A stretch of DNA of 64,000 nt from Spirochaetota bacterium (GCA_018816345.1 JAHIWG010000139.1:15769-79768), one strand, 5' to 3'. Positions 2,583 through 56,697 are shown, counted from the first letter of the stretch. Program-made: numbers and translations. Notes: generated by a model not told the origin, from the sequence alone.

Positions 2583-2611
2583 TTTACCGAGAGCCCCTGG
2601 CGGGCTACAAT
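2583..2611 (+). promoter_or_regulatory. Sigma70-type promoter placing the TSS at the ATG of the 2618 ORF (leaderless candidate)
   Basis: TTTACC (2583-2588), 17-nt spacer, TACAAT (2606-2611), then 6 nt to the ATG at 2618. No SD is present. Confidence 0.45.
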
Positions 2612-2617
2612 ACCTAT

Positions 2618-3061
2618 ATGCCGCATGTAATACACTACGAGGACGATTTCTTCATCGTGGACGGCCTGGTCCGAGTCGTCTGCGACGCCGCGAGGCTCGA
2701 GCCCGACGCCGATATAATCGGCGACGCCGTGATATCCGCCGCCAGGCTCGCGGACGCCACCCTAAGGCGCGTCAAGGACGTTATCCTCCAGAACGAGCAC
2801 CTCGTCGACAGGGCCGAGTGCCTGCGCCTGCTCGCGAGGACGACGCGCGCCTTCGCGGACGCCCTCTCCGATCTGGCGCGCCCTGGATCCCCGCTGGAGC
2901 AAACCTTCGCGAGCTCCTCGGACGAGCTGGAGCGCGTCGCCGCCGCGCACAGGGCGGCGGCCGCCGAGCTCAGGGACGTGCTCCACGCCACCTCCGGAGG
3001 CGACGACTCCCCGGAGGATCACGTATCCGGGGACGAGCTGTCGGAGCTGCTACGCGCCTGA
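2618..3061 (+). CDS. Hypothetical acidic protein (147 aa)
   Basis: Intact ORF with GC-rich third codon positions and the promoter directly upstream. I recognise no family. Confidence 0.55.
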   Translation: MPHVIHYEDDFFIVDGLVRVVCDAARLEPDADIIGDAVISAARLADATLRRVKDVILQNEHLVDRAECLRLLARTTRAFADALSDLARPGSPLEQTFASSSDELERVAAAHRAAAAELRDVLHATSGGDDSPEDHVSGDELSELLRA

Positions 3062-3092
3062 CGCGACGGATCCGCGGGACGGCTAGAAGAGG

Positions 3093-3854
3093 CTAGAAGA
3101 GATATCGCTCCATCTCTGCGAGGCCGCCTATGGTCAAGTCGGGGTCTATGGCGTCGAATACGTCCGTCAGGTCGGAGAGCACCCTGCACAGCCCTCCCGT
3201 CGCTATGACCTTGGCGCCGCCGAGCTCCTTCGTGATCCTTCCGACGAGGTACTCCACGAGGCCCGTATAGCCGAGCACGACGCCGGCCTGGATAGCCTCG
3301 ACGGTATTCCTGCCCATGGCGGACGCGGGGGCCTCCAAGGGAACCGAGGGCAGCTGGGCCGTCGCGCTGGAGAGCGATCCGGCGGCCGTGCCGAGCCCGG
3401 GGGCTATGGACACGCCTATGATAGACCCCGAGGAATCCACGGCGGTGAACGTGAGGGCGGTGCCGAAGTCGACGACGAGGCACGCCCCGCCGAACCTCGC
3501 CCACGCGGCGACGGCGTCGGCGACCAGGTCCGAGCCTATCTCGTGGGCCGCCACGACGCGCACCGGGAGCTTGCCGTAGACCGTCGGGCCGAGCAGCACG
3601 GGTTCCACGCCGAAAAGATGCCGCGCCATCTTTTCCATGGCCGCGGTCAGCTGCGGCACGACGGAGCTGATGATGACCCGGCTAATGGCGGCGGCTGCTA
3701 TGCCCCTATCCAGGAGGATGGCCTTGACGACGACGCCGTACTCGTCCTCGGTCTTGCCCTGGACGGTCCTTATTCGTAGAGTATCCACGAGCCGGCCCGA
3801 ATCGTAGACCCCGCCGACTATATTGGTATTGCCTGCATCTATGACGAATAACAT
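3093..3854 (-). CDS. coaX: Type III pantothenate kinase
   Basis: Starts MLFVIDAGNTNIVGGVYD and has ...GTALTFTAVD... and ...ATGGL..., matching the CoaX/ASKHA fold. The ORF-track start at 4040 was trimmed to the internal ATG at 3854, which matches the family N-terminus. Confidence 0.9.
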   Translation of the reverse strand: MLFVIDAGNTNIVGGVYDSGRLVDTLRIRTVQGKTEDEYGVVVKAILLDRGIAAAAISRVIISSVVPQLTAAMEKMARHLFGVEPVLLGPTVYGKLPVRVVAAHEIGSDLVADAVAAWARFGGACLVVDFGTALTFTAVDSSGSIIGVSIAPGLGTAAGSLSSATAQLPSVPLEAPASAMGRNTVEAIQAGVVLGYTGLVEYLVGRITKELGGAKVIATGGLCRVLSDLTDVFDAIDPDLTIGGLAEMERYLF

Positions 3855-3983
3855 GGCGCAATAATCCCCCCTTGACGGCGGCGCTGTCAAGGCGGAGCGA
3901 CATACGGGGCCCGCGGCGAACGCGACGCTTGCGCAGGGAGCCGCGCGTAGGCCATACTCTTTTATATCGTAGGAGAAGATAGC

Positions 3984-6699: not shown

Positions 6700-9231
6700 C
6701 TACGCGAAGAACTCCGACAGTTTCCGGTAGAGGGAGCCGACGCGCTCCTTCTGCTCGGGGGTGGCTATCTCGGACACCTCGTCGACCAGCGACTCGAGGC
6801 TGGCCAGGCTCTCGTTAAGCGCGGTATGGAAGCCCCGCGATACGCGGAACCAGTAGGTGCCGGCCGTATCGGTGAACATCGCCACGAACCCGAGCTCGGG
6901 GTTCTTCGGCTTCCAGTATGACGCCTGTAGCACGTGGTCCAGCACGGCGACGAGTCCGTCCAGGTCTTCGTTGACGTTGAACTGCCTCTTCCTAGGCCAC
7001 TCCCGCTTCAGGTCGTTCTCCGGGTCGAGCCAGTGCGCGACGCGGAGTATCGTCTCCAGCTTCTCGCCGTCCATGATGCGGTCGCGGCCTATCGCGACGA
7101 CCCCAAGCATCCCCTTATACGCGAGCCCCGCGTCCGCGGGCAGGCCCTCCCTGGCGCGCTTGAATTTATCCCATTCGAGCACGGCCTTCTTGCGCTTCTT
7201 CTCGGAGACCAGGTCGAAGACCTCCCCTCCTATCTTGACGCGCTGGGTAAAGTCGCGGGCCTCCTCGAGCGCCGGCCTCTCGGGCTGAGGTATGTACTTC
7301 GAGCCCGCGGCGGCCCTGCCGCGCGGCGCCTGCGCCGGGGCCTCGGCCGGCCTGCGGCCCAGGAGCGTATCGGAGACGATCGGGGATATCCTGGCGAGCA
7401 TGCGCCGCTGCAGCGGGGAGACGCTCATGGCGTACATGCGCGTAGTCCGCACTATCTCGCCCGCGACGATGAAATCGGGATTCTCCTTGAACATCACCGA
7501 GCTAGGGTGTATCTGGACGCGCTCGGCCATGAGGGTCCGGAAGGTGCCGCGCTCCTGCCTCGCGCAGACGAACTGGATGAGGCCGCGGCTGACCGCGCAC
7601 AGGTAATCCTCCGTCGGGCCGCCGGACGAGATGGGTACGCCGAGGTCGTGCACTATGAGCTCTATCTGCTCCTTGATGCGCACTATCTCGAGCAGCGTGC
7701 GCTCGTCCAGGTAGCTTCGGTCGCAGAACTTGGCCTTGTTCTTGGCCTCGGCGAAGGCGCGGAACATCTTCAGGTACGACATGAAGTCGCCCGACGGGTC
7801 GCGGAAGGCGTGATGGGCCCGCCTGGCCTCCAGCTCCTCGCCCGGAGGCAGCACGTACGGGCTCGACGTCGATAGGAACGCCGCGGCGATGACGACCTCC
7901 TCCACGACGTCGGGATACTTGAGCACGGCCTCGACGATCATCCTCGAGAGGCGCGGCAGGAGCGGGAACGCGCACATCATCTGCCCGACCTTGGAGAGGC
8001 TACGGTCCGGCTCGAAGGCCTCGAGCAGGTTGAGCACGTCCATGGCCCCCAGCACCCCGGAGCGCGGCGGCTTGGATATGAAATCGAAGCGCTCGAAATC
8101 CGTTATGCCCAGCTCCGCCATGCGGAGCACGACCTCCGACAGGTCCGTTCGGTATATCTCCTCCATCGTGAAGAGCGAGCGGTTCTCGAAGTCGTCCCGG
8201 GTATAGAGCCTGTAGCAGAATCCCGGGGCGGTTCGGCCGGCCCTGCCCTTGCGCTGGTTGCACGAGGCCTTGGAGATGGGGACCTGCACGAGGCTGGCGG
8301 TATAGGTCTTGGGGTTGTAGAAATTGAGCTTCGCCTGGCCCGAGTCTATGACGCTCGTGACGCCGTCGATGGTAACGCTCGTCTCGGCGATGTTCGTCGA
8401 GATGATGACCTTCTTCTTGCCCAATGGAGCCTTGTCGAAGACTCTCTCCTGCTCGTCCTTGCCTAGGCGCGCGTACAGGGGGACTATGTGGATACGGTTA
8501 CGGCTATCGCTGGCGGCGAGCCTGACCATGCAGTCCTTGATCAGCCTCTCCCCCGGCAGGAATACTAGCATGTCGCCGTCCCGCCTGTCGCCGATGATCC
8601 TGTTCACTATCTGCTCTATCTTGTCGACGAGCGAGTCCGGGTTCCCCTCTATGGCTGGCGGGTCCCATACGACCGTCACGGGGAAGACCTGGGTCTCTAT
8701 CTTCACGATGGGGCAGTCCCCGAAATACGCGCTGAAAATCTCCGCGTTGATGGTGGCGCTCGACACTATCACCTTGAACTCGGGGCGCTCCTCGAGGACG
8801 CGCTTCAGGAGCCCTAGTATGAAGTCGATGTTAAGGCTGCGCTCGTGGGCCTCGTCCACCATGATGACGGAGTACTTGGAGAGCGCCGGGTCGAGCTTCA
8901 TCTCCTGGAGGAGGATGCCGTCGGTCATTATCTTGATGCGGGTCGAGAGGTTGGTCTTATCCTCGAAGCGCATCTTGTAGCCGACGCGGCCGGGCATAGG
9001 GGTTCCGAGCTGCTTGGATATGAACTCGCTCACGGAGATCGCCGCGATGCGCCTCGGCTGGGTGACGCCGATCATTCCTCCCTTGGAGTACCCCGCCTCG
9101 TCCAGGATTACAGGCAGCTGCGTCGTCTTCCCGGAGCCAGTGGGGCTCTCGACGACGATGACCTGGTTGGACTCGATCGCGTCGAGTATGCGCTGCTTCT
9201 GCTGATACACGGGAAGGCTGTTGTGATCCAT
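6700..9231 (-). CDS. ATP-dependent DEAH-box RNA helicase, HrpA/HrpB family (843 aa)
   Basis: GSGKTTQLP (motif I), DEAHERS (motif II), SATI (motif III), TNIAETSVTIDG and QRKGRAGR (motif VI), plus a helicase-associated C-terminal region. Confidence 0.88.
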   Translation of the reverse strand: MDHNSLPVYQQKQRILDAIESNQVIVVESPTGSGKTTQLPVILDEAGYSKGGMIGVTQPRRIAAISVSEFISKQLGTPMPGRVGYKMRFEDKTNLSTRIKIMTDGILLQEMKLDPALSKYSVIMVDEAHERSLNIDFILGLLKRVLEERPEFKVIVSSATINAEIFSAYFGDCPIVKIETQVFPVTVVWDPPAIEGNPDSLVDKIEQIVNRIIGDRRDGDMLVFLPGERLIKDCMVRLAASDSRNRIHIVPLYARLGKDEQERVFDKAPLGKKKVIISTNIAETSVTIDGVTSVIDSGQAKLNFYNPKTYTASLVQVPISKASCNQRKGRAGRTAPGFCYRLYTRDDFENRSLFTMEEIYRTDLSEVVLRMAELGITDFERFDFISKPPRSGVLGAMDVLNLLEAFEPDRSLSKVGQMMCAFPLLPRLSRMIVEAVLKYPDVVEEVVIAAAFLSTSSPYVLPPGEELEARRAHHAFRDPSGDFMSYLKMFRAFAEAKNKAKFCDRSYLDERTLLEIVRIKEQIELIVHDLGVPISSGGPTEDYLCAVSRGLIQFVCARQERGTFRTLMAERVQIHPSSVMFKENPDFIVAGEIVRTTRMYAMSVSPLQRRMLARISPIVSDTLLGRRPAEAPAQAPRGRAAAGSKYIPQPERPALEEARDFTQRVKIGGEVFDLVSEKKRKKAVLEWDKFKRAREGLPADAGLAYKGMLGVVAIGRDRIMDGEKLETILRVAHWLDPENDLKREWPRKRQFNVNEDLDGLVAVLDHVLQASYWKPKNPELGFVAMFTDTAGTYWFRVSRGFHTALNESLASLESLVDEVSEIATPEQKERVGSLYRKLSEFFA

Positions 9232-9237
9232 GCCTCT

Positions 9238-9265
9238 ATTGTAGTCGAACGGGCGCGATTATCAA
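9238..9265 (-). promoter_or_regulatory. Sigma70-type promoter for the helicase gene (leaderless candidate)
   Basis: Minus strand reads TTGATA (9260-9265), 16-nt spacer, TACAAT (9238-9243), then 6 nt to the ATG at 9231. Confidence 0.45.
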
Positions 9266-9288
9266 AGCACCCCCGCGCTCGCTATAAT
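9259..9288 (+). promoter_or_regulatory. Sigma70-type promoter for the transporter gene (leaderless candidate)
   Basis: TTATCA (9259-9264), 18-nt spacer, TATAAT (9283-9288), then 7 nt to the ATG at 9296. Its -35 overlaps the -35 of the divergent promoter. Confidence 0.45.
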
Positions 9289-9295
9289 GCGAGGC

Positions 9296-10576
9296 ATGAC
9301 CAAGGATATAATCTCCGGGCTGGCGATCGCGGGCGGCATGGCCGCTATCGCCGCGGGCCGAGTGCCCGGGCTCCGTATGAACCGGGCCTCCATAGCGTTC
9401 TCGACGGCCGCCTTCCTCGTCGCGACGGGGGCGATCAGCCCGGGAGATGCGATCGCCGCCGTCGATACGGGTACTATCGCTCTCTTGCTATCGATGATGA
9501 TAATCGTTGGCGGAATACGCTCGTCGGGCCTCTTCGACCTGGTCGCCGCGAGGCTCTCGGGGCTTGCGGGCCGCCCGTTAGCCTTCCTAGCCGCGATTAT
9601 CACGGCGTCGGGACTCCTATCCGCCCTTTTCCTCAACGATACCGTATGCCTCGCCCTCGGGCCGGTCGTCGCCGAGGCTTGCCTCAGGGCCAGGCGCGAT
9701 CCGGTGCCCTACCTCGTCGCGACCGCGACCGCCGCCAACGTCGGCTCGGCCGCTACCATAATAGGCAATCCGCAGAACATCCTAATCGGCGCCAGGAGCG
9801 GCCTGTCGTTCGCCGATTTCACCCTTCGCCTAGGGCCGCCCGCGCTCCTGGGACTCGTAGCCTGCTGGACTGTGGTCGTCCTGGCCTTCCCTAAGGATTT
9901 CCTGCGCAGGGCCAGCGGCGTAGGCCTCCCCTCGCCGCCGGCCAGCGACGCGGCGCCCGACTCCCGGGCCGCGTGCGTAGGTCCGCTCGCTGCGGTTAGG
10001 ATAGACGTTCCCCTAGCGGCGAAAAGCCTCATAGCCAGCGTGGCGATGCTCGTCGGCTTCGTCTCCGGCGTCAACGTGATAGCCGCGGCGCTCGTGCCGG
10101 CGGCCTTCTTGCTCGCTTCGGCCCGGGCGGGCTCGGATCGCCAGTTCGCCGGCGTCGACTTCAACCTGCTCGTGCTCTTCGCCGGTCTATTCGTCATTAC
10201 CGACGCGGCCTCGCGGACGGCGGCCTTCGCGTGGCTCGAGCGGACCGTCCTTTCGGGCGCCGAGGCCTCTCCGTGGGCGTTCTCCGCCGCGACGGCGGCC
10301 GTCTCCAACGTCATCTCCAACGTGCCGGCGGTCATGGCGCTATCGCCTATCGTCATGCGGATGGGCGATCCCCGGAACGCTTGGCTCGTCCTCGCCATGG
10401 CCAGCACTTTCGCTGGCAACCTGACCCTCCTAGGCTCCGTCGCCAATCTCATAGTCGCCGAAGGCGCGGCTACGCGCGGGGTCAGGCTCGGCTTCTGGCC
10501 GTACCTCAAGGCCGGCTTGCCGATAACGGTCATCACCCTGGCGATAGGAGCGGCCTGGCTTAGCCCGGCCCCTTGA
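9296..10576 (+). CDS. Anion/ion transporter, ArsB/NhaD (CitMHS-like) permease superfamily
   Basis: Polytopic ORF of about 426 aa with the duplicated hairpin-type architecture typical of this superfamily (...ATIIGNPQNILI..., ...GNLTLLGSVANLIV...). The track start at 9287 lies inside the TATAAT box, so the ATG at 9296 is preferred. Confidence 0.7.
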   Translation: MTKDIISGLAIAGGMAAIAAGRVPGLRMNRASIAFSTAAFLVATGAISPGDAIAAVDTGTIALLLSMMIIVGGIRSSGLFDLVAARLSGLAGRPLAFLAAIITASGLLSALFLNDTVCLALGPVVAEACLRARRDPVPYLVATATAANVGSAATIIGNPQNILIGARSGLSFADFTLRLGPPALLGLVACWTVVVLAFPKDFLRRASGVGLPSPPASDAAPDSRAACVGPLAAVRIDVPLAAKSLIASVAMLVGFVSGVNVIAAALVPAAFLLASARAGSDRQFAGVDFNLLVLFAGLFVITDAASRTAAFAWLERTVLSGAEASPWAFSAATAAVSNVISNVPAVMALSPIVMRMGDPRNAWLVLAMASTFAGNLTLLGSVANLIVAEGAATRGVRLGFWPYLKAGLPITVITLAIGAAWLSPAP

Positions 10577-10627: not shown

Positions 10628-10726
10628 GGTGCTATCGCCGGGGTGGCGGTACGGTTCCGTAGGATCCAAAGCCGTCTGAGAACAGACCCGAAGAACCTGA
10701 ACTAGGTAATACTAGCGGAGGGAGCA
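10628..10726 (+). promoter_or_regulatory. TPP (THI-box) riboswitch
   Basis: The conserved elements appear in order: GGGGTG..., CTGAGA, ACCC, then AACCTGAACTAGGTAATACTAGCGGAGGGA. This matches the THI-box core (CUGAGA ... ACCUGAxCxGGxUAAUxCCxGCG). The 3' end overlaps the SD of the downstream gene. Confidence 0.85.
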
Positions 10727-10728
10727 CC

Positions 10729-15778: not shown

Positions 15779-15839
15779 TACATGCTCCGGCAATCGATTT
15801 CGTATGGCTATTCGCTAGATAGCATCTATAATGTACCCT

Positions 15840-16688
15840 ATGGGCGCCTTAGGAGCAAACAGGACCGTTCGCGACGCGATAGTCGCCGGCATTTTCTATC
15901 CGGACGACGCGGCAGGGCTGATCGACGCGGTCGACGACGCCCTTTGCGCCGCGTTAGGTCCCGACTCGCGGAACGAGCCGACGCGGCCCATCGCTATCGT
16001 ATCCCCTCACGCCGCGTTCGAATACGCCTGCGACGTTCAGGCGGCGGCCTGGGCCAGCGCGGCGAGGGGACCGGTCGACAGGGTCGTCATCGTCGCGCCG
16101 CTTAGGCGCCGAGGAGAATCGGCCGCGTATCTCCCGGAATCGGACGCCTTCAGGACCCCTCTCGGCGATATAGAGGTCGATACGGGAGCCTGCGCCGACT
16201 TGGAGTCATGCAACACACTGTTCTCGTGCAACGACATCCCGCACCTGGAGAGCCATGCCATCGAGGTTCAGCTACCGTTCATGCGACGCTTGTTTCCCGA
16301 GGCGCTCCTCGTGCCCATCCTCGTGGCCGACGATTCGATCCTCGCCTCTGGTGTGGCCCGCGCCATCGACTTAGTGCTCGGCGACGACTTCGACCGCACG
16401 CTGCTGGTCGCGTCCGCGAACCTCGCTTCCTCGATAGTCGCCGCGGACGCGGCCAGGCGATCCGACGACGCCCTCGCGATGATGCAGGCGCTCGCGTGGC
16501 GGGACCTTGCCGAGCGCAGCGATATCGCCGGGGCTACCGCGGTATCGTCGGTAATGGCCGTCGGATCGATGCGCGGCGCGCGGTACCGCCTGATTAAAAG
16601 GATAGACTCGCTTCGCCACGGCTCGCCGGCCGCGGAGCGGATAGTCAACTACGCCGCGGTCTCGTGGTATCCGGGAGCCGGCTCATGA
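15840..16688 (+). CDS. amrB: AmmeMemoRadiSam system protein B (Memo-like)
   Basis: AGIFYPDD...IVSPHAAFEYACDV...HAIEVQLPFM matches the Memo family. It overlaps the AMMECR1 gene. The start is either ATG 15840 (leaderless register) or ATG 15831. Confidence 0.8.
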   Translation: MGALGANRTVRDAIVAGIFYPDDAAGLIDAVDDALCAALGPDSRNEPTRPIAIVSPHAAFEYACDVQAAAWASAARGPVDRVVIVAPLRRRGESAAYLPESDAFRTPLGDIEVDTGACADLESCNTLFSCNDIPHLESHAIEVQLPFMRRLFPEALLVPILVADDSILASGVARAIDLVLGDDFDRTLLVASANLASSIVAADAARRSDDALAMMQALAWRDLAERSDIAGATAVSSVMAVGSMRGARYRLIKRIDSLRHGSPAAERIVNYAAVSWYPGAGS

Positions 16689-17251: not shown

Positions 17252-18449
17252 TCGCGGACCCCGCCACCGTAACGCGCCCGGCCCGCTCGTCGACGTCGAG
17301 GGTAACCGCGCCGGCTACGCCTCTGGCGGGGCCGTAGCCGGCCACGAGCTCCTCGAGGGACAGCCTCTGAGAAGGATACGCGGGGAATAACGATTCGGTA
17401 GCCGCGTACGCTATCCCGTCGGGCATCCCGTCGGAGCCGAATATCAGGTCGGCTCCAGGCGCGTAGCCTACTTCGTCGATGAGCATCCTGAACGGATTGT
17501 TCCTACGTAGGTACTCGCCGCTGAGCCGGTCTACGTAATCCTTGGAATCGCTGGAGAAGTTAGGCTGCATGGAAAGCGTCGCTCCTAGATCGCGAGCCCG
17601 GCTCGCCTGAGCCTTGTCGATGAACTGAACGTGCTCGAGCCTGACCGCATCGAAACGCGCGCCGCGGCGAACAGCCTCGGTTACGCAGGCAAGCGCCTGC
17701 TCTATGGCGAGCTCGCCGATGGCGTGCATCGATACGCCCGTCCCGTAGGCGCCTATCCGCTCGAGGATAGTAACGAGCTCCGCGTCCGAATAGGTGAACA
17801 TCGCCTTTCCGGCCCCTATCCAAGGCCCCGCTATGGCAGCGCTCCTCGCTCCGACGGCTCCGTCTAGATATAGCTTTATTCCTGACAGTCGAGCACGCCT
17901 CGGGGTGTCCAGTTCTTCATACAGGGCGGGGGATACCCAGGGCCTTATCCTATCCGAAAACGTGGAGGAGGTGCATATATCGACTGCTTCCTTCGTAGGT
18001 ACCGTCATCTCGTCGCTGGAACCGATGCCGAGGGGCACGAGCGCGTCGATATAAGCGCGGAGCCTCCTCTCGTCGATCCCCGTCAGTCCGCAGTACGCCG
18101 CGAAGATCGCCGGGACGTTAGCCTCGCACCAGGCTTGATCGTTCCTACGGAGAGCGACCTCCGGGACGACCCTTTCCACGAACGGAATACCCTCGTCGCT
18201 TACTACGAAGCCGTGCAGGCTGAAATTTATGAGGAGGATAGGAGGCAGTTCCCTAAGCGCCGACGCGTCCAACGGCAGCTCGAACGACTTCCACCCCCTG
18301 ACTACCGTCAGTCGTTCGCGCGGCAGGGCTCTCAGTATGGCTAACGCCTCGGCGGCGCTGGCCTTGGAGATATCGACGCATGCCGAGAAGGCGGCGTAGA
18401 GAGCGACGTGGTTATGGTTGTCATGAAGGAGCGGGATCGTGGTCTGCAT
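17223..18449 (-). CDS. Amidohydrolase-family metal-dependent hydrolase (YtcJ-like)
   Basis: N-terminal HDNHNH metal motif, internal ...KLYLDGAVGARSA... and C-terminal ...FGSDGMP... The 3' end overlaps amrA convergently by 29 nt. Confidence 0.75.
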   Translation of the reverse strand: MQTTIPLLHDNHNHVALYAAFSACVDISKASAAEALAILRALPRERLTVVRGWKSFELPLDASALRELPPILLINFSLHGFVVSDEGIPFVERVVPEVALRRNDQAWCEANVPAIFAAYCGLTGIDERRLRAYIDALVPLGIGSSDEMTVPTKEAVDICTSSTFSDRIRPWVSPALYEELDTPRRARLSGIKLYLDGAVGARSAAIAGPWIGAGKAMFTYSDAELVTILERIGAYGTGVSMHAIGELAIEQALACVTEAVRRGARFDAVRLEHVQFIDKAQASRARDLGATLSMQPNFSSDSKDYVDRLSGEYLRRNNPFRMLIDEVGYAPGADLIFGSDGMPDGIAYAATESLFPAYPSQRLSLEELVAGYGPARGVAGAVTLDVDERAGRVTVAGSAITAPAPRRL

Positions 18450-18619
18450 GCCTGTACGATATCCGCGAGGCTCGTCCTTGGCAAGGGAGCCCCAGATTCT
18501 TTCGACGGACTGTCGCCGGGGAGATAGTGGGCGATAATAAGTCGATATATTTTTATTATTGACATCCTCATTCGCCGCTACTGAGGCCGAGGATCGATCC
18601 TAAGCGCCGGAGCCTAGCC

Positions 18620-20713: not shown

Positions 20714-20775
20714 GCGGCCGGATTTATTCCGACACTCGTTGTGATTTTATAATATTTTTATGATATCCTCATACC

Positions 20776-22416
20776 ATGAAGCAGCGATCGCATGGAATAG
20801 CCGCCCTTAAGCGGATCGAGGAGCGCTATAGCGGGAGTCCCGTGAACGAGCGCATTAAAAGCAGGAATCTCGGCGTCGTGGTCGTCGCCGTCGCGGGCGC
20901 GTCCATCGTGCTGAGCGCCGTCCACGTCGCCACGGGGAAGCCTTCTAATCTCGTCACGTCGCTGCCCGCGATCGCGGCCTCCCTCATCGCGTTCGCGTTC
21001 CTATCGCGGGGGGCGTACCGCGCGACCAGCACCGTCTACCTGATAGCGCTCTCGATTATCCCCTTCGCCGCCGCGACTATCCAGGAGCCGCTCGGTTACC
21101 GCGACCTCTATATGTACCTATTGTTCTGCGTCCCGTTCCTCGTGCTATCGCTCATCGTAGGATATAGCCGATACCAGCTATGGGCTGTAGGGACTATCCA
21201 GGCGGCGCTCGGCGCGGTCTATACGGCCACGAGCATCGTCCCCAACGCCGGAGGCTCGCTGGCGGGCATTTCCTTCGGCCTCGTATTCGGCTTCATTTTC
21301 CATTCGCTCGCGGTCGCGTTCCTGACCATAAGCTTCGACGTGGAAAAAGCCATCATCAGCGACCTCGCCAGGAACGAGGCGGCCGCCGTCTCGAGGATGG
21401 AGTGGCTCGCGGGCCTCCTGCGGTCGTCCGAGGAGACGCTGTCGGTAGGGTCGGAACTCTCGCGGGTCGCCGAGTCCTCCGCGAGAGGCGCCGGGGATAT
21501 AGCCCGGGAAAGCGGCAACGCCCGTATCCTGCTCGGGGCCCTCGGGGGGACGGTAAGGGATAGCGCCGAGGAGAACGAGCGGCTCGCTACCGGAGGCCGC
21601 CGCGTTAAGGACGAGATGAAGTCGCAGACGGCGGCCGTCTCGCGGTCTACGGCCGCCGTCGAGGAGATGAGCGCGGCTATCCTGCAGATGACAAAGTCCG
21701 CCAAGGAGAAAGCGGAAGTCTCCGCGGAGCTGGCCGCCGAGGCGGCGGCCGCCGACGAAGCGTTCTCCGGGACAGTCCGTTCACTCTCCGACCTCGAGGC
21801 GTCGTCGGCCGAGGTCCTGGCGGTCATCTCCGTCATCGAGGAGATTGCCTCCAGGACTAACCTCCTCGCGATGAACGCGGCCATCGAGGCCGCGCACGCC
21901 GGCGAGCGCGGCAAGGGCTTCGCGGTCGTGGCGGCCGAGATACGCAAGCTCGCCGAGGAGACTAACGAGAATTCGAGGAAGAGCAAGGCGATACTCGTAA
22001 AGAACAACCGCGATATCAGGGCCGTCGTCGAGAGCGGGGAATCGAGCAAGGAGAGGCTCCGCGGGATCCAGCGCAAGACCGTAGAGGTCAGGCAGGCCCT
22101 CGACGAGATGATAGGCGGGATGTCGGAGATAGCCATAGGCACGGGCGAGATAAACGAGGTCATAGCCAACCTCCGCGCTATTCAGGGGGCGGTGATCGCC
22201 TCCGTCGACGATATGGGCTCGATCATAGACAAGGCCCGCTCCGGCTTCTCCGGGCTCGAGTCGAAGGCGGCGCAGGCGACGCTCATCGTGGAGGGCATCT
22301 CCTCCCAGGCCTCGGACCTGAGCGCCAGGGCCGAGGAGGTCAGGAGGATAGGCCTCGACAACGAGACGGCCATCAAGGGCTTCAAGGAGTCCCTCGACAG
22401 GCGCGGAGAGGCGTAG
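20776..22416 (+). CDS. Methyl-accepting chemotaxis protein with polytopic membrane N-terminal module
   Basis: Contains [34 protein letters not shown]. The first 190 aa or so are about six hydrophobic helices with no periplasmic domain. Confidence 0.9.
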
Positions 22417-22422
22417 CTTCGC

Positions 22423-23322
22423 CTAGCGCCTATCTCCCGGCGCCTCTCGCGCCTTGGACGGCCATTGCGCGATGAACGTGCCTCCGAGCATGACGGCGCA
22501 GCCGATAAGCTCTCGCGCGCCCAGCCGTTCCCCGAGGAATAGGAAGCCGGCGAAGGCGGCGAACGGGGACTCCAGGGACATGATGATGGAAGCCCTGGCG
22601 GGATGGGCCTTGCTCTGCGCGACGGCTTGCAGGGTATACGCGATGCCTATGCTGAACAGCCCTCCGTAGGCGATAGGCAAGGCGGCGGCCCTGAAATCCG
22701 CTATCGACGGGGCCTCGGTAGCGAAGGCGCCCCCCCAGCAGATCGCCGAGCAGACGGCGAACTGCACGCAGGCCAGCGCCAGGGGGTCTACCTTCGCGGC
22801 CCATCGGTCCAGTACCAGTATGTGAGCCGTCCAGAAGAACGCGCTCGCCAGGACCAGGGCGTCGCCCCTGTTAATAGAGGCGGGGGCGGAGAACGAGAGG
22901 ACGTACAGCCCGGCGAGCGCGCACGCGGCCCCTATCCAGGCCCTGACGGGGGTACGCCGGCCGAAAACCATGGCCGCGATAGGGACGAGGACGACGTAGA
23001 GGCCGGTTATGAAGCCGGCCTTCCCCGCGCTCGTGTACTGGAGGCCCGACTGCTGGAAACCCGCGGCGACGGCCAGCACGGCGCCCGCGGCGGTACCGGG
23101 AACGAGCGCGGCGCGCACCGTAGAGAGGCTCGCCTTCCGCGCGACTAGCAGGGGTACGAGGGCCAGGGAGCCGACGAGGAATCGCGCCGCGTTATAGGAG
23201 AACGGCCCGAGATCCAGCATGCCTAGCCGCTGGGCCACGAAACCGGTTCCCCAAATGGCCGCCGTGATGAATAAGAGCGCCTCGTACCGGGCCGCGCCGG
23301 GGGCGTTATAGGTTCGTTCCAT
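22423..23322 (-). CDS. EamA/DMT-family transporter
   Basis: 299 aa with about 10 TM helices arranged as a duplicated EamA-type repeat. Confidence 0.85.
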   Translation of the reverse strand: MERTYNAPGAARYEALLFITAAIWGTGFVAQRLGMLDLGPFSYNAARFLVGSLALVPLLVARKASLSTVRAALVPGTAAGAVLAVAAGFQQSGLQYTSAGKAGFITGLYVVLVPIAAMVFGRRTPVRAWIGAACALAGLYVLSFSAPASINRGDALVLASAFFWTAHILVLDRWAAKVDPLALACVQFAVCSAICWGGAFATEAPSIADFRAAALPIAYGGLFSIGIAYTLQAVAQSKAHPARASIIMSLESPFAAFAGFLFLGERLGARELIGCAVMLGGTFIAQWPSKAREAPGDRR

Positions 23323-23444
23323 CGCGCGAGTGTACCGGCCGGCGGCCGCCTAGGCAAGCCGGGCGGCGGGAGCCGTACGGGCGGTTCCCGATATCGCGCG
23401 CAGCGTAGGCGCCATAACCCGCCAGGGCATGCTAGAATCGCGGC

Positions 23445-32617: not shown

Positions 32618-32659
32618 CCGACGCCGATCGGTCCCTAGTACCGGCTTCGAACGTACAAG

Positions 32660-34188: not shown

Positions 34189-35840
34189 ACCGACTCCTTC
34201 CTCGATATCGCTCCGTCGATATACAGTATAAGCGCTAGCGCCAGCAGAATACAGGCCAACGCGGCAATAAACCAATCTCCGTACGACAGATACGGCGTGG
34301 TCTCGCCCGTATACACGGGTATCCTCACGGCCCTCGAGGTCGACTCGAATAGCGGCAACGACTCGAGGATGCTCCCGTCGGGCCCGACGACGGCGGAGAC
34401 GCCGCCGTTGGTAGAGCGCACGAGCGTTCGCCTCAGCTCCACTGTCCTGAACCTCGCGGCTACGAAATGCTGGATCTCCGCGGAATCCGTCTTCGACCAC
34501 GCGTCGTTGGTGAGATTGACGAGCATTTCCGCGCCTTCCAGCGCGAATTCCCGGCATAGGTAGGCGAACGCGTCCTCGAAGCATATCGGCGCGGCGAACC
34601 GTACGGTCCCGGCGCCCTTCGTCGGGAGCTCGAAGATGACGCGCTCGGAGCCCATGACCCATCCGGATTCAAGCCCGACGACGTCCTGGATGAAGTTGCG
34701 CACGGGATCGTACTCCCAGAACGGGATGGCCTCGGCGAAGGGCACGGGATGGATCTTGGCGTAGCTACCTACTTGCTGCCCCCGGGGGTTTATGAGGATA
34801 ACGGAATTCGTAGCCGCGAATGTCTCGTAGTCGAGAATCTCCGGGGCGCCCGTGAACAGGTACGCTCCGGTATCAGCTATGAACCCCGCCAGGGGATCCT
34901 TGGCCGGGGTCCTGGCGTAGAAGCGCTTAAATCCGTTCCACGGGCGCCTGAGCGTCGTCTCGCTGAAGAGTACAATATCGGGCTTGACGGCCGACTCAAG
35001 GATAGCCTCGCGCGCCAGGCCTATCGATACCGACAGGTTCTCCGCTTCCGACCCGCTCCAAGAATCGACGTTCTGCTGCACCATCACGGCGTCGACGAAG
35101 CCCCGAGGCTCCCTAGGCCTATTCAGGGCCACGAACCCGTAGCCTAGGATGCAGGCGAACAGCACGGCGGACACGACCAGCTGTCCGAGGGCCAGGAAAC
35201 GGCTTTCGCCGCCCAGGGGCCTCGCGGGAAGCGAAAAGCGAAGCGGGCCGAGAGGGTTTCGCTCCGCCGCCGTATCGAGCGGAGACGGCAGCATGGCAGG
35301 CGGGGAGCAGAGGAGCTCGGCGAGGGTAGCCGATACCAGAGCCAGCGAGAACGACAGGCCGTACACCCCGGTGGACTCGACTATCTGAACGGCGGGAAGG
35401 ACGGTATTCCAGCTATGCGCGAGTATCCCCCAGGGATAGCCCAGGAAACCGGTCGATTTCCCCCACTCGAACACGGCCCAGCTCATCGCGAATACGAGGG
35501 GACGAGCCAGGCCTCCGCGCTTTAGCGCGCCGCGAAGGTATAAGCCGACGAAGCCGTATACGAGCATATAGGCGATGATGGTCGTGCCGAGCGTCCAGAA
35601 CCGGAAACCCTTGAAGAACCACAGCCAGTAGCTCGAGAGCCCGTGCGCTAGGCCGCCGAACACGGCGCCGACCGCGAAGGAGCCTCGATACGACCTGGTC
35701 GTCTCTAGCGCGACGTAAAGCGGCGCCAGGGCGACGAGCCCGAGCGCGGGGTTGCCCCAGGCGAATAGCTCGTTAGGCAGGGCGAGAGCAAGGAGTACGC
35801 TCGAGACTATTCCGAGCGAGAGAGAGCGTAATTGCCTCAT
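34185..35840 (-). CDS. lnt: Apolipoprotein N-acyltransferase
   Basis: N-terminal polytopic membrane domain, then a CN-hydrolase (nitrilase-like) domain (...VLFSETT..., ...KIHPVPFAE..., ...PICFEDAF...), then a C-terminal TM helix. Confidence 0.9.
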   Translation of the reverse strand: MRQLRSLSLGIVSSVLLALALPNELFAWGNPALGLVALAPLYVALETTRSYRGSFAVGAVFGGLAHGLSSYWLWFFKGFRFWTLGTTIIAYMLVYGFVGLYLRGALKRGGLARPLVFAMSWAVFEWGKSTGFLGYPWGILAHSWNTVLPAVQIVESTGVYGLSFSLALVSATLAELLCSPPAMLPSPLDTAAERNPLGPLRFSLPARPLGGESRFLALGQLVVSAVLFACILGYGFVALNRPREPRGFVDAVMVQQNVDSWSGSEAENLSVSIGLAREAILESAVKPDIVLFSETTLRRPWNGFKRFYARTPAKDPLAGFIADTGAYLFTGAPEILDYETFAATNSVILINPRGQQVGSYAKIHPVPFAEAIPFWEYDPVRNFIQDVVGLESGWVMGSERVIFELPTKGAGTVRFAAPICFEDAFAYLCREFALEGAEMLVNLTNDAWSKTDSAEIQHFVAARFRTVELRRTLVRSTNGGVSAVVGPDGSILESLPLFESTSRAVRIPVYTGETTPYLSYGDWFIAALACILLALALILYIDGAISRKESV

Positions 35841-35891
35841 AGCATCGCATGATACACGCTGATCGATCCGAACGCCAGTCTCGTACGGTCC

Positions 35892-35920
35892 TTGACGCCC
35901 TCCGGCGGGCGGTTTATGGT
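35892..35920 (+). promoter_or_regulatory. Sigma70-type promoter for coaD (leaderless candidate)
   Basis: TTGACG (35892-35897), 17-nt spacer, TATGGT (35915-35920), then 6 nt to the ATG at 35927. Confidence 0.45.
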
Positions 35921-35926
35921 TCCGCT

Positions 35927-36424
35927 ATGGTTAAGGCCGTTTTTCCGGGTTCGTTCGATCCTCCGACCTATGGGCACCTGAACATCATCGAGCGCGCCCG
36001 CTCTATTTTCGAGCGCGTGCTCGTCGTCGTCGCCGTGAACAGGGATAAGCGATACCTCTTCGACGCGGCCGAGCGGGTCGCGTTCATGCAGGAACTCGTC
36101 GCGCCCTGGCCCAACGTAGAGGTGCATACCTGCGATACCCTCATCGTCGAATTCGCTAGGCGCCACGATTGCCGCGTGCTGCTGCGCGGCGTCAGGAGCG
36201 TACAGGACTTCTCGTACGAGTTCGAGCTATCCATACTGAACAAGGGCGTAGGACCGGAGATAGAGACGTTCTTCATGCCGACGGACCAGAAATTCTTCGT
36301 GCTGCGCTCGAGCGCGATCAAGGAGCTCGCGTCGTTCGGCGGCGACGTCGGCGGCATGGTCCCGCCGGTCGTCGAGCGGGCGCTCAAGCGCTTCGTGGTC
36401 GATCCGAGAGAATCGTTACCTTGA
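35927..36424 (+). CDS. coaD: Phosphopantetheine adenylyltransferase
   Basis: [24 protein letters not shown]..., the canonical T/HxGH nucleotidyltransferase N-terminus. The track start at 35849 was trimmed. Confidence 0.92.
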
Positions 36425-41141: not shown

Positions 41142-41731
41142 GAGGCGCTCAATTCCACTATGGCGCTGCGGAGCAGCTCCCGCTCGCGTTCGGGAGTGGA
41201 CGCGGGCATGTCCGCGTCTAGCCGCGCGAGGGTCTCGGAAACGCGGCGCCTATCGTATCCCATGTCGACGAGCGCGCGCATTATATCCTCGTGCGGGCCC
41301 GTCGCCGCCAGGCCCCTCGAGGCCAGCCTCGAGGGCAGCTTGCCCTTGAGCGTGAAGACGAGCTTCTGCGCCGTCTTCTTTCCTAGCCCGGGGATCGATT
41401 CGAGCCTGGCCAGGTCCTCCGCCTCCAGCGCGCTTTCCAGCTCGTCCGCGCCTATCCCGCCGAGGATCTTGAGCGCCTGCTTGGGACCGATGCCGTCGAC
41501 GCCCATGAGCTCGACGAACACCGAACGCTCCGATTCGCTCGCGAAACCGAAGAGGCGCATCTGGTCGTCCCGGTGCAGGAGCCAGCACAGTACGCGCGCC
41601 TCGTCGCCGAGGCGCCCGAAGGAGTCGACGGAACGCGCGGGCACGGCGAATTCCCACTCGACCCCGTAGGTGTCTATCCTGATACTATCCGCGCCCTTGT
41701 AGCAGAGCGTCCCTCGTACGGCGTTGAACAT
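41138..41731 (-). CDS. ruvA: Holliday junction DNA helicase RuvA
   Basis: OB-fold N-terminus, tandem HhH motifs (...GIGPKQALKIL..., ...IPGLGKKTAQKL...) and a C-terminal domain III. Confidence 0.93.
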   Translation of the reverse strand: MFNAVRGTLCYKGADSIRIDTYGVEWEFAVPARSVDSFGRLGDEARVLCWLLHRDDQMRLFGFASESERSVFVELMGVDGIGPKQALKILGGIGADELESALEAEDLARLESIPGLGKKTAQKLVFTLKGKLPSRLASRGLAATGPHEDIMRALVDMGYDRRRVSETLARLDADMPASTPERERELLRSAIVELSAS

Positions 41732-41739
41732 GACGGGGA

Positions 41740-42273
41740 TTATAGACGGCTAGAGCGGGACGTATCAACTAAGGCGGAACGCACGGCTCTGCCCTGGCTA
41801 TGGCAGAGCGCCACGGCCAGGGCGTCCGCCGCGTGATCGGGCTTCGGGACGGCCGTAAGCCCCAGAACCAGCCGCACGAAGGCCTGGACGTCTTCCTTGC
41901 CGGACCTTCCGGAGCCGGTGGCGGCTTTCTTCACGTCCATGGGACCGTACTCGCTCATGGCGAGCCCGGCGTCCCTGCACGCGAGGCGTATGACGCCCCT
42001 GGCCTCGGCGACCCCGAGCGCGCTCGAGACGTTGCGCGAGAAGAACAGCGATTCCATCGCGGCCTCGGCGGGCGCGTATTCCGCTATGACGGCGGCCAAG
42101 GAGCTCCGTATATGCGCTAGGCGCTCGGCCACGTCGTCCCCGGCCTTCGTCGTGAAGCACCCGTGGCCCCTATAAACGATTCGGGCGCCGTCTATGTCGA
42201 CGACGCCCCACCCCACGGCGGCGAGCCCTGGGTCTATGCCGAGGACGCGGATCCTATCGGGTCCGCGTTCCAT
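41740..42273 (-). CDS. ruvC: Crossover junction endodeoxyribonuclease RuvC
   Basis: RVLGIDPGLAAVGWGVV... and ...PDHAADALAVALCH (RNase H-fold catalytic acidic residues). Confidence 0.93.
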   Translation of the reverse strand: MERGPDRIRVLGIDPGLAAVGWGVVDIDGARIVYRGHGCFTTKAGDDVAERLAHIRSSLAAVIAEYAPAEAAMESLFFSRNVSSALGVAEARGVIRLACRDAGLAMSEYGPMDVKKAATGSGRSGKEDVQAFVRLVLGLTAVPKPDHAADALAVALCHSQGRAVRSALVDTSRSSRL

Positions 42274-48975: not shown

Positions 48976-49257
48976 TCAATGGCCGAAGAGGCCGTCGAAG
49001 GCGCTCTTCGCGGCCTTTGACGAGTCCTGCCCTCCGCTACCCTTGACGGTAGCCGGATCGGCCTTGAAATATTCGCAGAAATTCATCCGCTCCTTGTCCT
49101 TGACGGTATCGGGAACCGTTTCCAGGCAATCGCGGTAAGCGCCGGGCTTATAGAAACGGCAATGGACGCAGGCGTGCAGCTCCCTGCCGCAACTCTCGCA
49201 GAGATCCCGGAATCCTATCCTCTCGACGGGTAGCGGCGTCCCGCAGTATGAGCACAT
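48976..49257 (-). CDS. Small cysteine-rich (multi-CxxC) protein, 93 aa
   Basis: MCSYCG...CESCG...CVHC...C...C, which suggests two zinc ribbons. It heads the murI-rsgA-mutS2 gene string. Confidence 0.6.
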   Translation of the reverse strand: MCSYCGTPLPVERIGFRDLCESCGRELHACVHCRFYKPGAYRDCLETVPDTVKDKERMNFCEYFKADPATVKGSGGQDSSKAAKSAFDGLFGH

Positions 49258-49263
49258 GGGGTC

Positions 49264-49292
49264 AGTGTACGCGCCGACCGGTAAATTTTCAA
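49264..49292 (-). promoter_or_regulatory. Sigma70-type promoter (leaderless candidate) for the Cys-rich ORF/murI string
   Basis: Minus strand reads TTGAAA (49287-49292), 17-nt spacer, TACACT (49264-49269), then 6 nt to the ATG at 49257. Confidence 0.45.
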
Positions 49293-54125: not shown

Positions 54126-54130
54126 GCCGC

Positions 54131-55150
54131 CTACCTGATGCCGCCGAGGCGCCCCAGTGGCCAGTAGACGAATAGCGCGTGCCCTAGAACCTTATCGAGC
54201 GATACCGCCCCGAACCAGCGCGCGTCCTTTGAATTATCCCTATTATCGCCCATGGGGAAGACCCTATCCTCCGGGATGTACCATCCGGAACGGATCATCC
54301 TATCCTCGGCGACCGTGCGGGCGTCATGGGGATACGCCGACGCCAGCTCCGCTACCAGGGAGGCGTTGAACGCCTTGTCGTCGTACTGGTTATACCGGAC
54401 GGAGGGCATGTCGGTCCGTATGCCCATCTCGACCTCTGCCCTCGCGACGCCCGCGCGACGTATGGAAGGATAGTCCTCGGGCTTTACCATGCGCCTGAGC
54501 GGGTACTGGAAGCCGGTAGCCTTCTGATAGTCGCGCTCGGACGTCCATTCGGACTCCCCGCGGAAGAGGAATCCGACCTCGCCGTCGACGACCCTGACGG
54601 TATCGCCGCCGACGCCGACCGCGCGCTTGATGAGGTAATGCACCCGCGGCTGGCCGGCCTCGTCGAGGTCTATATCCACGAGCGTCAGCGTCGCCATGTA
54701 GACGAACTGCTGCAGTATCGTGAAAATCGGCCCCTTCGACAGGTAGGCGGGGTTCTCGAACACGACGACCTCCCCGCGGGAGGTACGCCTGAAGCCGGGC
54801 ATCTTGGCGACGCCGGGAAGCAGTTCCGGCCCGTACACTATCTTATCGACGAAAATCATATCGCCTATCTCGAGCGTTCCCGACATGGAACCCGAGGGAA
54901 TGCGGTACATCTGGAACAGGTATTGGTTTATGAGGAGAACCATGCATACGGCCCAAAGGATGGCTTCCGCCCAGTCGCGGATCCAGTGCTTGGCCTGTTG
55001 TTTCATCTTCTGGGCGAGCCGGCGCTTCTTTCGGCGCGTCAGCGCGCGCTCCGTGAAGGACTCCAGCGACGCGAGGAAGTCGGTTTTTGCGTCCATCGGA
55101 TCGAGGCTACCATCTTTCGTTCGCGTTGACAAGCCTCGCCGCGGACTCAT
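54131..55150 (-). CDS. lepB: Signal peptidase I (second, longer paralog)
   Basis: IPSGSMSGTLEIGD, ...RGEVVVF..., ...GDNRDNSKDARWFG... The start is uncertain: ATG 55150 or ATG 55096. Confidence 0.85.
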   Translation of the reverse strand: MSPRRGLSTRTKDGSLDPMDAKTDFLASLESFTERALTRRKKRRLAQKMKQQAKHWIRDWAEAILWAVCMVLLINQYLFQMYRIPSGSMSGTLEIGDMIFVDKIVYGPELLPGVAKMPGFRRTSRGEVVVFENPAYLSKGPIFTILQQFVYMATLTLVDIDLDEAGQPRVHYLIKRAVGVGGDTVRVVDGEVGFLFRGESEWTSERDYQKATGFQYPLRRMVKPEDYPSIRRAGVARAEVEMGIRTDMPSVRYNQYDDKAFNASLVAELASAYPHDARTVAEDRMIRSGWYIPEDRVFPMGDNRDNSKDARWFGAVSLDKVLGHALFVYWPLGRLGGIR

Positions 55151-55155
55151 ATAAT
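55126..55155 (+). promoter_or_regulatory. Consensus sigma70 promoter (leaderless candidate) for the PEGA/FGE-domain gene
   Basis: TTGACA (55126-55131), 18-nt spacer, TATAAT (55150-55155), then 6 nt to the ATG at 55162. Confidence 0.6.
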
Positions 55156-55161
55156 CCCGCG

Positions 55162-56697
55162 ATGAACGACGATAAGACGATAACCAGACAGGATATCGAC
55201 GAGGCCAAGGTTAGCCTCAGGCCGGTATTCGGCATCGCCCCTAAGTACTACGTGGCGGCCATATACGGCGTAGCCGCCCTGGCGGTCGCCTTCCTCCTCC
55301 TCGTATTCCCGGGGCTACGGAAGCCCGGGACGCTCTACTCGTTCGTCGTCGACCCTCCGGGAGCCGCGATATCGATAGACGGCGTCTACCGGGGCTCCGC
55401 TCCCTGCGAGCTCTTCCTCGCCGCGGGAGAACGCTCGGTTAGCATTTCCCGACCCGGTTTCGCGCCCAGCGCGACGGCCGTTATCGCTAAGGGCCGGGTC
55501 TTCGGGACCCTGGTCGTAAAGCCAAGGGCGACGCTGACCGCGTCGCTCGAGATAGATGGACGTTCAGCCGCGCTAAGGGACGGGGCGAGCCTGTACGCGT
55601 CATGGGCCCTCGCGGGTTCTCCGAGCGAGGCCTACCAGATCCCTCTCGTCCTATCGGACGCCGCGCTCGCGCTGTCCAAGGAGCCGCTCTCGACCGAGGC
55701 GCGCGGCCTGGCCGGCGCCGCGGTCTCATACGCCAGCCACGCCCAGTCGCTCAGGGACGCCGCTCGCGCCGTATCAATAGCCTATTCCGACTCGGCGGCC
55801 GTCACGCCAGCATCGCTCGGCAGGCTCGTGAGCGCCCTTAGCTCTGAACTGAGAGACGATCCCGCCATGCTCGCCGCCTTCGCCTCGCTCGTCCCCGCTA
55901 CCGTCCGCGCGCGTATCGAGCCCACGGGCCTATACCGGGAAGCGGTCGCGAACGCCGTAGCCGCGGCCCGGCGAGCCTCCGCCGTAGCGGGCGGCACCGA
56001 GACTGCGGACGGTAAGAAGTTCATAGCCGTAAGGGCGGGCACGGCCGTCGTCGCCGCGAGAGACGCTCTTCCCGCCTCGTCGGAGGTCGCCGGCTTCATG
56101 ATCGCCTCTGAGGAGACGACAGTAGGCGAATTCAGGCGCTTCGTCGCGGCGCGCCCTGACTGGGGCCCCTCCGCCGCGGCGTCCCTGGCCCGGGCCGGCC
56201 TCGCGGAGACCGATTACCTCCAAGGCTTCGGAGACCTCGCGGACGAAGACGTCCTCCGCTACGTCTCTAGGCCCGCAGCGATCGCCTACTGCTCCTGGCT
56301 CTCGGAGCGGGCGCCCTCCGGATACCGCTACTCGCTCCCTACCGAGGCTCAATGGACGCTCGCGGCGGCCGCGGGCCGGGCGTCGCCCGCGGGCGTTCCT
56401 TTCGCCGATTCGGGCGCGACGGGGCCTTCCCGGCCTTCGGGGCTTCCGAGCGACGCGGCGGGTCTCAAGGGCATGCTCGGCAACGTATGGGAATGGTGCT
56501 CCGATTCTTACTCCTCGAGCCCGGCGAGCGGCGCGGCCGGCAGGTCCCGCTTCCCGTCGGCCGAGGCGGTAGTCAGGGGCGGATGCTGGGCTAACCGAGC
56601 CAGCCTGGTGCGCGTCGACTCGCGCGGGCCCATGCGCGAATCGGAATGCTCGCCCTACCTCGGTTTCAGGATCGTCCTCGCGCCCTATACGGAGTGA
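55162..56697 (+). CDS. Membrane-anchored PEGA-domain / formylglycine-generating-enzyme (SUMF1) domain protein
   Basis: One TM helix, a PEGA-like beta domain (...GAAISIDGVYRGSAPCEL...), an Ala-rich linker, and a C-terminal FGE-sulfatase domain (...TTVGEFRRFV..., ...LPTEAQW..., ...GNVWEWCSD..., ...RGGCW..., ...LGFRIV). Confidence 0.8.
   Translation: MNDDKTITRQDIDEAKVSLRPVFGIAPKYYVAAIYGVAALAVAFLLLVFPGLRKPGTLYSFVVDPPGAAISIDGVYRGSAPCELFLAAGERSVSISRPGFAPSATAVIAKGRVFGTLVVKPRATLTASLEIDGRSAALRDGASLYASWALAGSPSEAYQIPLVLSDAALALSKEPLSTEARGLAGAAVSYASHAQSLRDAARAVSIAYSDSAAVTPASLGRLVSALSSELRDDPAMLAAFASLVPATVRARIEPTGLYREAVANAVAAARRASAVAGGTETADGKKFIAVRAGTAVVAARDALPASSEVAGFMIASEETTVGEFRRFVAARPDWGPSAAASLARAGLAETDYLQGFGDLADEDVLRYVSRPAAIAYCSWLSERAPSGYRYSLPTEAQWTLAAAAGRASPAGVPFADSGATGPSRPSGLPSDAAGLKGMLGNVWEWCSDSYSSSPASGAAGRSRFPSAEAVVRGGCWANRASLVRVDSRGPMRESECSPYLGFRIVLAPYTE

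Follow-up and report, generated by a model that had tools for sequence, protein, structure and literature searches.

Predicted leaderless genes with a -10 box beside the start codon in a 64-kb stretch of a high-GC Treponematales-like spirochaete

A TAnnnT hexamer about 12 bp before the start codon marks leaderless ('TA-led') genes, which Zheng et al. (2011) found in 207 bacterial genomes and which account for 19% of the genes of Actinobacteria, 39% of those of Deinococcus-Thermus and 1.8–6.9% in 6 of 18 genomes of Spirochaetes (PMC3160421). The main text of the GeneMarkS-2 study describes, as its 'group C', a Pribnow box 6–8 nt from the start of operon-first genes, a pattern rich in Actinobacteria and Deinococcus-Thermus and rare in Proteobacteria and Firmicutes (PMC6028130). 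Differential RNA sequencing (dRNA-seq) of Leptospira interrogans mapped about 440 mRNAs with an untranslated region (UTR) of less than 10 nt, 170–184 of them starting at the ATG, and coenzyme metabolism is over-represented among the leaderless genes at 30 °C (PMC5243855); in Borrelia burgdorferi the same method identified 85 leaderless mRNAs (PMC5314773). A literature search on leaderless mRNAs in Treponema or its relatives found nothing relevant. Here we describe a stretch of 64,000 nucleotides from Spirochaetota bacterium (GCA_018816345.1, JAHIWG010000139.1:15769-79768; hereafter the window, with positions counted from its first letter) in which a -10 box ends 6–7 nt before the ATG of many genes that head transcription units. 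Most of these genes very probably give leaderless mRNAs, that is, mRNAs with a 5′ UTR of 0–2 nt.

The window genes match the TA-led and group C genes in several respects: the first T of TAnnnT lies about 12 nt before the start (a gap of 6–8 nt), the genes concerned are operon-first, Shine-Dalgarno (SD) sites serve other genes, and, as in other high-GC genomes, only the T, the A and the final T are informative. They differ in share: in this one 64-kb sample, roughly 23% of genes and 43% of units belong to the class, against the few per cent of genes surveyed in spirochaetes. The dRNA-seq maps of Mycobacterium tuberculosis, Mycobacterium smegmatis and Deinococcus deserti display the same geometry from promoter to AUG, the same coexistence with SD sites and a similar share, from a quarter to half of transcription units. 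Those cases belong to another phylum and are backed by measured starts, proteomics and reporters, whereas the window genes are assigned from sequence. Leptospira and Borrelia share with the window the phylum and a mapped abundance of mRNAs with short leaders or none, but they belong to other orders and have low-GC genomes, and no sigma70 motif was found ahead of the starts mapped in Leptospira, whereas the window sites show clear -35 and -10 hexamers. The mechanism is already known, including in the same phylum, and nothing here is mechanistically new; what is new is the lineage, an apparently high leaderless share and how deeply single genes conserve the arrangement.

The original prediction listed 11 starts at which a -10 hexamer ends 6–7 nt before the ATG, and reading the 50 nt 5′ of each of these start codons shows that all hexamers, spacings and ATGs are present exactly as quoted. 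The excess was measured on 60 genes mapped onto window coordinates from third-party annotations (ENA k141_194712, NCBI GCA_018817705.1 and JGI 3300014656, metagenome contigs with parts identical to the window). With the third-party starts left as they are (n = 60), TAnnnT falls at a spacer of 6 nt in 8 genes and at a spacer of 7 nt in 3, while at the remaining spacers between 0 and 53 nt it is never present in more than 2 of the 60. The hexamer occurs at a frequency of 0.0068 per position across the window, rising to 0.0113 in intergenic DNA, and the 11 genes observed compare with 0.8–1.35 expected (binomial p = 9e-8 to 5e-10). The boxes at the starts are near consensus (TATAAT, TACAAT, TAGAAT, TACACT), and the background TAnnnT within genes is mostly of the TAGCCT or TAACCT kind. 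After four start corrections, in tig, hisS, Memo and the sulfatase gene, each made on evidence before the classes were counted, 14 of the 60 genes (~23%) belong to the class with a -10 box at the ATG. Thirteen of the 14 are unit-first, meaning that they either diverge from their neighbour or lie more than 40 nt from the gene before them, and they make up 43% of the 30 unit-first genes; the fourteenth, ruvA, is operon-internal and has a promoter of its own with 11/12 consensus matches.

The class is sharply separated from the genes with SD sites. A loosely defined SD-like motif precedes 1 of the 14 genes, where it is a stretch of Gs preceding the coaX -10 box, and 34 of the 46 other genes (Fisher p = 1e-5). 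All 14 genes start with ATG, compared with 34 of the 46 others (p = 0.05). Genes internal to operons have a GGAG-type SD or overlap with their upstream neighbour, and TAnnnT at 6–7 nt is present at one internal gene only. Units led by rpsF, the substrate-binding protein (SBP) gene, rpmF, yebC, hyp79 and DUF2147 have SD sites and predicted promoters of their own farther upstream. SD-led and predicted leaderless modes coexist in the window, as had been proposed, with the correction that the SD of tig is of the GAAGGGG rather than the GGAG type.

The 14 sites are predicted sigma70-type promoters. An independent sigma70 scan returns 26 sites in 60 kb, compared with about 9 expected from shuffles, and 9 of the 26 end 6–7 nt before a called ATG. 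A -35 hexamer at a distance of 16–18 nt has at least four of six matches in 11 of the 14 sites and at least five in 8, compared with 5.9% and 0.44% at random positions, and with 7.3% and 1.7% at the other TAnnnT sites of the window. A TGn extended -10 is found at the aminopeptidase, S26 peptidase and MCP sites. One predicted promoter, TTGACC-18-TATGGT, has its end at 10630; the paired core of a thiamine pyrophosphate (TPP) riboswitch follows from ~10634–10637, where a start 7 nt past the -10 box falls; the riboswitch onset thus serves as a positive control for the promoter model. The riboswitch itself (10629–10740, +; Rfam RF00059, 54.7 bits, just over the gathering score) precedes SBP, permease and ATPase transporter genes, and the 3′ strand of its P1 helix shares bases with the GGAGGGAG SD of the SBP gene (10729).

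Most sites combine both hexamers, and we give them here as -35, spacer, -10, gap and start codon. On the plus strand, the 147-aa conserved hypothetical gene (hyp147) has TTTACC-17-TACAAT-6-ATG (2583..2620), the CitMHS/ArsB-type transporter gene TTATCA-18-TATAAT-7-ATG (9259..9298), coaD TTGACG-17-TATGGT-6-ATG (35892..35929) and the PEGA/FGE-sulfatase gene TTGACA-18-TATAAT-6-ATG with 12/12 consensus matches (55126..55164, the scan placing the promoter itself at 55126–55155). On the minus strand, coaX, which encodes type III pantothenate kinase, has TTGACA-18-GATTAT-6-ATG (3852..3890), the hrpA-like DEAH helicase gene TTGATA-16-TACAAT-6-ATG with a -35 that overlaps that of the divergent gene (9229..9265), the Amidohydro_3 gene TTGCCA-17-TATCGT-6-ATG (18447..18484), the EamA transporter gene TTGCCT-17-TACACT-6-ATG (23320..23357), and a 93-aa hypothetical gene (hyp93), called in two assemblies and heading the murI-rsgA-mutS2 unit, TTGAAA-17-TACACT-6-ATG (49255..49292). 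The Memo gene (AmmeMemoRadiSam B; 15827..15842, +) has only a perfect TATAAT 7 nt before its ATG, with neither a convincing -35 nor TGn, and the aminopeptidase gene (PF10023; 23430..23447, +) has the extended box TGcTAGAAT-6-ATG without a -35. The earlier claim of a -35 at most sites is borne out, with these two (15840 and 23445) as the sites that have no good one. The list of 11 likewise reads as stated, with the qualification that the coaX box (3854) is GATTAT and not a TAnnnT hexamer, and it is incomplete, as it overlooked four starts: ruvA at 41731 (-), the first S26 signal peptidase gene at 55096 (-), a weaker case in the second methyl-accepting chemotaxis protein (MCP) gene at 20776 (+), and lnt at 35840 (-). 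The internal ruvA promoter is TTGATA-18-TATAAT-7-ATG without an SD (41729..41768, -). The S26 peptidase gene, called at 321 aa, has TTGTCA-17-TGgTAGCCT-7-ATG (55094..55132, -), again with a -35 overlapping that of the divergent gene. The MCP candidate is TGaTATCCT-6-ATG in an AT-rich 62-nt gap and has no SD (20761..20778, +). For lnt we tentatively propose a near-leaderless start, with TATCAT-8-ATG, a weak -35 and no SD (35838..35854, -). The stop codon TAA of ruvC sits within the TATAAT box of ruvA (41739–41744, -). By eye, the gap of 6–7 nt between -10 box and ATG looks GC-rich at most sites (CGCGGC, CCCGCG, CGCGCG, TCCGCT, GACCCC), and likewise in high-GC helicase orthologues.

The lineage of the window was assessed with the 843-aa hrpA-like helicase, whose relatives, searched at one genome per species, yielded 80 loci. 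Uncultured Spirochaetota with the labels Treponemataceae, Treponematales, Rectinemataceae or Treponema account for nearly all of them, a few being labelled only 'bacterium', and the best match is 'Spirochaetae bacterium HGW-Spirochaetae-3' with 90% amino-acid identity. Because the helicase relatives carry these labels, the window (61–68% GC) is assigned to an uncultured high-GC Treponematales-like spirochaete of groundwater-type metagenomes.

The arrangement is conserved across Treponematales-like spirochaetes, most clearly before the helicase gene. TAnnnT lies 5–8 nt before the ATG in 71 of 77 distinct helicase upstream regions (56 at 6 nt, 10 at 7, 4 at 5 and 1 at 8), and control spacers in the same regions have it at 0.011 per position. 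This register persists across 35–68% GC and at protein identities as low as 57%, against a background of diverging upstream sequence. Three orthologues (L082, L084 and L087) have AAAGGAA and then an ATG two codons farther upstream, which we read as a switch of the helicase gene to an SD. For hyp147, TAnnnT lies 6–7 nt before the aligned ATG in 10 of 14 orthologues and the other 4 are SD-like; in L031, L034, L036 and L041 an SD-like motif stands in place of the -10 box. The motifs that replace the -10 box in the switched helicase and hyp147 relatives are AAAGGAA or GGAGG. TAnnnT is found 5–8 nt before the ATG in 11 of 13 Memo orthologues, and the register is kept in 12 of 19 orthologues of CitMHS, 5 of 6 of the amidohydrolase, 3 of 3 of EamA, 2 of 2 of the sulfatase, 4 of 6 of the S26 peptidase and 1 of 6 of the aminopeptidase, 3 of whose orthologues are SD-like. 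The two control genes show the opposite: the register is absent from all 17 rpsF and all 9 SBP gene orthologues, every one of which is SD-like. The coaX orthologues (n = 12) have a TTGAC-type -35 in all 12, exactly TTGACA in 11, and TAnnnT in none. In 10 of the 12, a -10 box of the form nAnnAT or nAnnnT ends 5–7 nt before the ATG (L009, L011, L021, L029 and L031–L033, and shifted in L017, L018 and L041), and the invariant A and the final T of the -10 box are thus kept in most orthologues.

A profile of the clade extends this beyond single genes. Open reading frames (ORFs) of the related loci were taken from a crude caller based on GC3, for which 48 of 52 window ORFs are among the 60 called genes and whose percentages are rough; ORFs with a candidate ATG after TAnnnT were counted per spacer against a background at spacers 12–35, and the helicase gene was excluded because the bait, itself leaderless by prediction, inflates the profile. 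The excess at spacers 6–7 amounts to 10% of 156 ORFs in the group with 78–90% identity, 3.5% of 232 ORFs in the group with 62–74% identity, which is weak on its own, and 6% of 342 ORFs in the group with 57–62% identity. Run through this pipeline, the window comes out at 23%. The term 'widespread' as applied to this pattern covers the 60 window genes and the ~730 ORFs of relatives.

From these sequences we infer where transcription starts and how ribosomes load. RNA polymerase would bind the -35 hexamer, or a TGn extended -10, together with the -10 hexamer. The start is placed at the start codon because the usual distance from the -10 box is about 7 nt, with indirect support from the riboswitch onset; at a gap of 6 nt this would be the A of the ATG, and at a gap of 7 nt the A or the preceding base, such that transcription would begin at the A or within about 1–2 nt of it. 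The resulting mRNA would have neither a 5′ leader nor an SD site, and its 5′-terminal AUG would presumably be recognised by the ribosome directly, as in other bacteria rich in leaderless mRNAs. Within these units the genes farther downstream use GGAG-type SD sites, as does the other half of the units. Each computational prediction of the leaderless reading that could be tested was borne out.

Several observations weigh against this reading or fail to add to it. Predicted folding energies for the opening 45 nt of the coding sequences do not differ between the classes (-7.5 kcal/mol for the predicted leaderless genes and -9.4 kcal/mol for the rest, p = 0.6), and a pyrimidine at position -1 is not significantly enriched (11 of 14 and 30 of 46). 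Three sites are weak, namely MCP (20776), lnt (35840) and the aminopeptidase, whose orthologues are mostly SD-like. Another ten genes, located on the same contig beyond the window, provide 0–1 cases; this is compatible with a share of 20% (P ~0.1) but comes from too few genes for a replication.

Among the rival explanations, the one that survives best is mixed transcription, in which the leaderless form is one isoform, perhaps condition-dependent, and an upstream promoter or read-through gives a leadered or polycistronic form. One case in its favour is ruvA, which starts 8 nt after the ruvC stop and is surely carried on the ruvC transcript as well. The MCP gene has other possible -10 boxes farther upstream (TATAAT 21 nt and TATGAT 11 nt before the ATG), and several intergenic regions of 120–200 nt could fit further promoters. 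There is, however, no space for other promoters in the divergent regions of 64–65 nt (9232–9295 and 55097–55161), and no SD is present to serve a leadered form. As a general account of these genes we consider mixed transcription rather unlikely.

A second rival accepts the promoters as real but has translation begin at a downstream codon, the ATG beside the -10 box merely opening an ordinary leader. The callers do disagree on the starts of Memo, the sulfatase, hisS and tig, and the starts of hyp147, hyp93, the amidohydrolase and the aminopeptidase draw on callers and orthologue alignment, with no family profile. The originally proposed start equals the third-party call at 9 of the 11 sites (e.g., CitMHS with 426 aa from 9296, CoaD with 165 aa from 35927 and CoaX with 253 aa from 3854). 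The proteins themselves argue for these N-termini. CoaX residues 1–246 match positions 1–248 of the NCBIfam type III pantothenate kinase model, and CoaD residues 4–154 match positions 2–152 of TIGR01510; since the profile matches open at residues 1 and 4, a start farther into the gene would cut off part of either domain, which rules out a leader followed by a downstream start in coaX and coaD. The Memo model begins at residue 11. Orthologues of the helicase share the N-terminal motif M-D/N-P-x-x-LPVYQ from residue 1, and they, like those of hyp147, CitMHS and Memo, align from their first residues with the ATG in register with the -10 box. Translation from a downstream codon is thus a very improbable reading.

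The same evidence bears on which of several possible starts is correct, and the choices of 9296 over 9287, 15840 over 15831 and 35927 over 35849 made in the original prediction are upheld, as is 55162. For Memo, two callers give 15840 (282 aa) and one gives 15831 (285 aa), and we set the start to 15840; for the sulfatase, NCBI gives 55162 (511 aa) and ENA 55126, and we set it to 55162. The alternative coaD start at 35849 is unlikely, as it adds 26 residues foreign to the family. Gene callers that assume SD sites misplace starts in such genomes: the rival TTG at 55126 is simply the opening triplet of the TTGACA -35 box, and the rival ATGs at 9287 and 15831 arise from TATAAT followed by G. A simple rule, '-10 box, 6–7 nt, ATG', repairs all three. 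The two remaining corrections concern SD-led genes. The hisS start was set to 3984 (435 aa, AGGAG SD) because conserved coding sequence extends 5′ of 4047, the start of a 414-aa call in one annotation; the conserved VLKGFRDFLP is encoded 5′ of 4047 in all relatives. The tig start was set to the GTG at 31998 (452 aa, with the SD described above) because the 519-aa call of one annotation is too long, overlapping tRNA-Gly and a terminator-like hairpin (32135–32104). Five tRNA genes, for His, Arg, Lys, Leu and Gly, are clustered upstream of tig (32141–32731, -).

Even less probable is a third rival, in which TAnnnT is no promoter element but part of an extended 5′ UTR, where it would load ribosomes independently of an SD as an A/U-rich site of the protein S1 or 'group B' type. 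An A/U-rich upstream bias of non-SD genes has been discussed in terms of possible S1 sites (PMC5397173). In the window, however, the information follows the pattern T-A-n-n-n-T of a -10 box rather than general A/U richness, hexamers like TTGACA accompany the element at 16–18 nt, and the gap to the ATG is the usual distance from a -10 box to the transcription start. Internal operon genes use GGAG instead, whereas group B motifs precede all genes (PMC6028130); the same non-SD motif at first and internal genes, which identifies group B, is not found in the window. Chance, or selection by the reader of TAnnnT near ATGs in AT-richer intergenic DNA, is effectively refuted: although TAnnnT is 1.7 times commoner in intergenic DNA than on average in the window and alternative starts were chosen between at four sites, p is still 9e-8 with third-party calls and the intergenic rate, as the original prediction of a fixed register not due to chance would have it, the peak is confined to spacers 6–7, and the same peak recurs in the orthologues and, with the helicase removed, in the ~730 ORFs of the 80 related loci.

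With the leaderless reading as the preferred account, an uncultured spirochaete lineage joins the bacteria with a large share of probably leaderless units. The helicase gene further suggests that the leaderless state of a single gene can persist across an order while GC content shifts from 35% to 68%, with occasional switches to an SD. More tentatively, and at a level of confidence that stops short of an even bet, Treponematales-like spirochaetes, and especially this high-GC groundwater lineage, might form a third bacterial group with an Actinobacteria-like reliance on leaderless mRNAs (at least 40% of transcription units). The same tentative proposal would have the leaderless state of the hrpA-like helicase, of coaX and, in some families, of smpB held order-wide, with a recurring compact design in which two leaderless genes diverge from a region of 64–65 bp with overlapping -35 hexamers.

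Back-to-back divergent promoters are a known class in bacteria, and both window pairs belong to it in that two promoters would fire in opposite directions from one short region. The pairs (9229–9298 and 55094–55164) consist of genes only 64 and 65 bp apart, and both members of each are predicted to be leaderless. They differ from the general class in that the -35 hexamers overlap by 5 bp (TTATCA/TTGATA and TTGACA/TTGTCA, with the cores TTATCAA and TTGACAA), such that the entire intergenic region would be promoter, with no UTR. The TTTGATAATC core of a divergent pair is kept in close relatives, and the CGTTGACAAG core is found in distant Treponemataceae too.

Many of the hits of the clade profile in distant Treponemataceae are textbook cases, for instance CGTTGACAAG-N-TATAAT-6/7-ATG before smpB. 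In many Treponemataceae relatives (L054, L055, L063, L066, L067, L075 and others), smpB has a TTGACAAG-N-TATAAT promoter 6–9 nt before its ATG. In the window, smpB (56702) comes second in order after the sulfatase gene and is preceded by a GGAG SD, and the same promoter core precedes the window sulfatase.

Two minor observations concern individual genes. Both coenzyme A pathway genes of the window, coaX and coaD, are in the predicted leaderless class; with two genes, this may be coincidence. An HRQ1-type helicase gene that extends past the end of the window has TTTACC-17-TATCAT-9-ATG just beyond that end (L089 7526–7625, ~window 64174–64273) and would have a leader of 2–3 nt, which would make it near-leaderless and place it outside the 6–7 nt rule.

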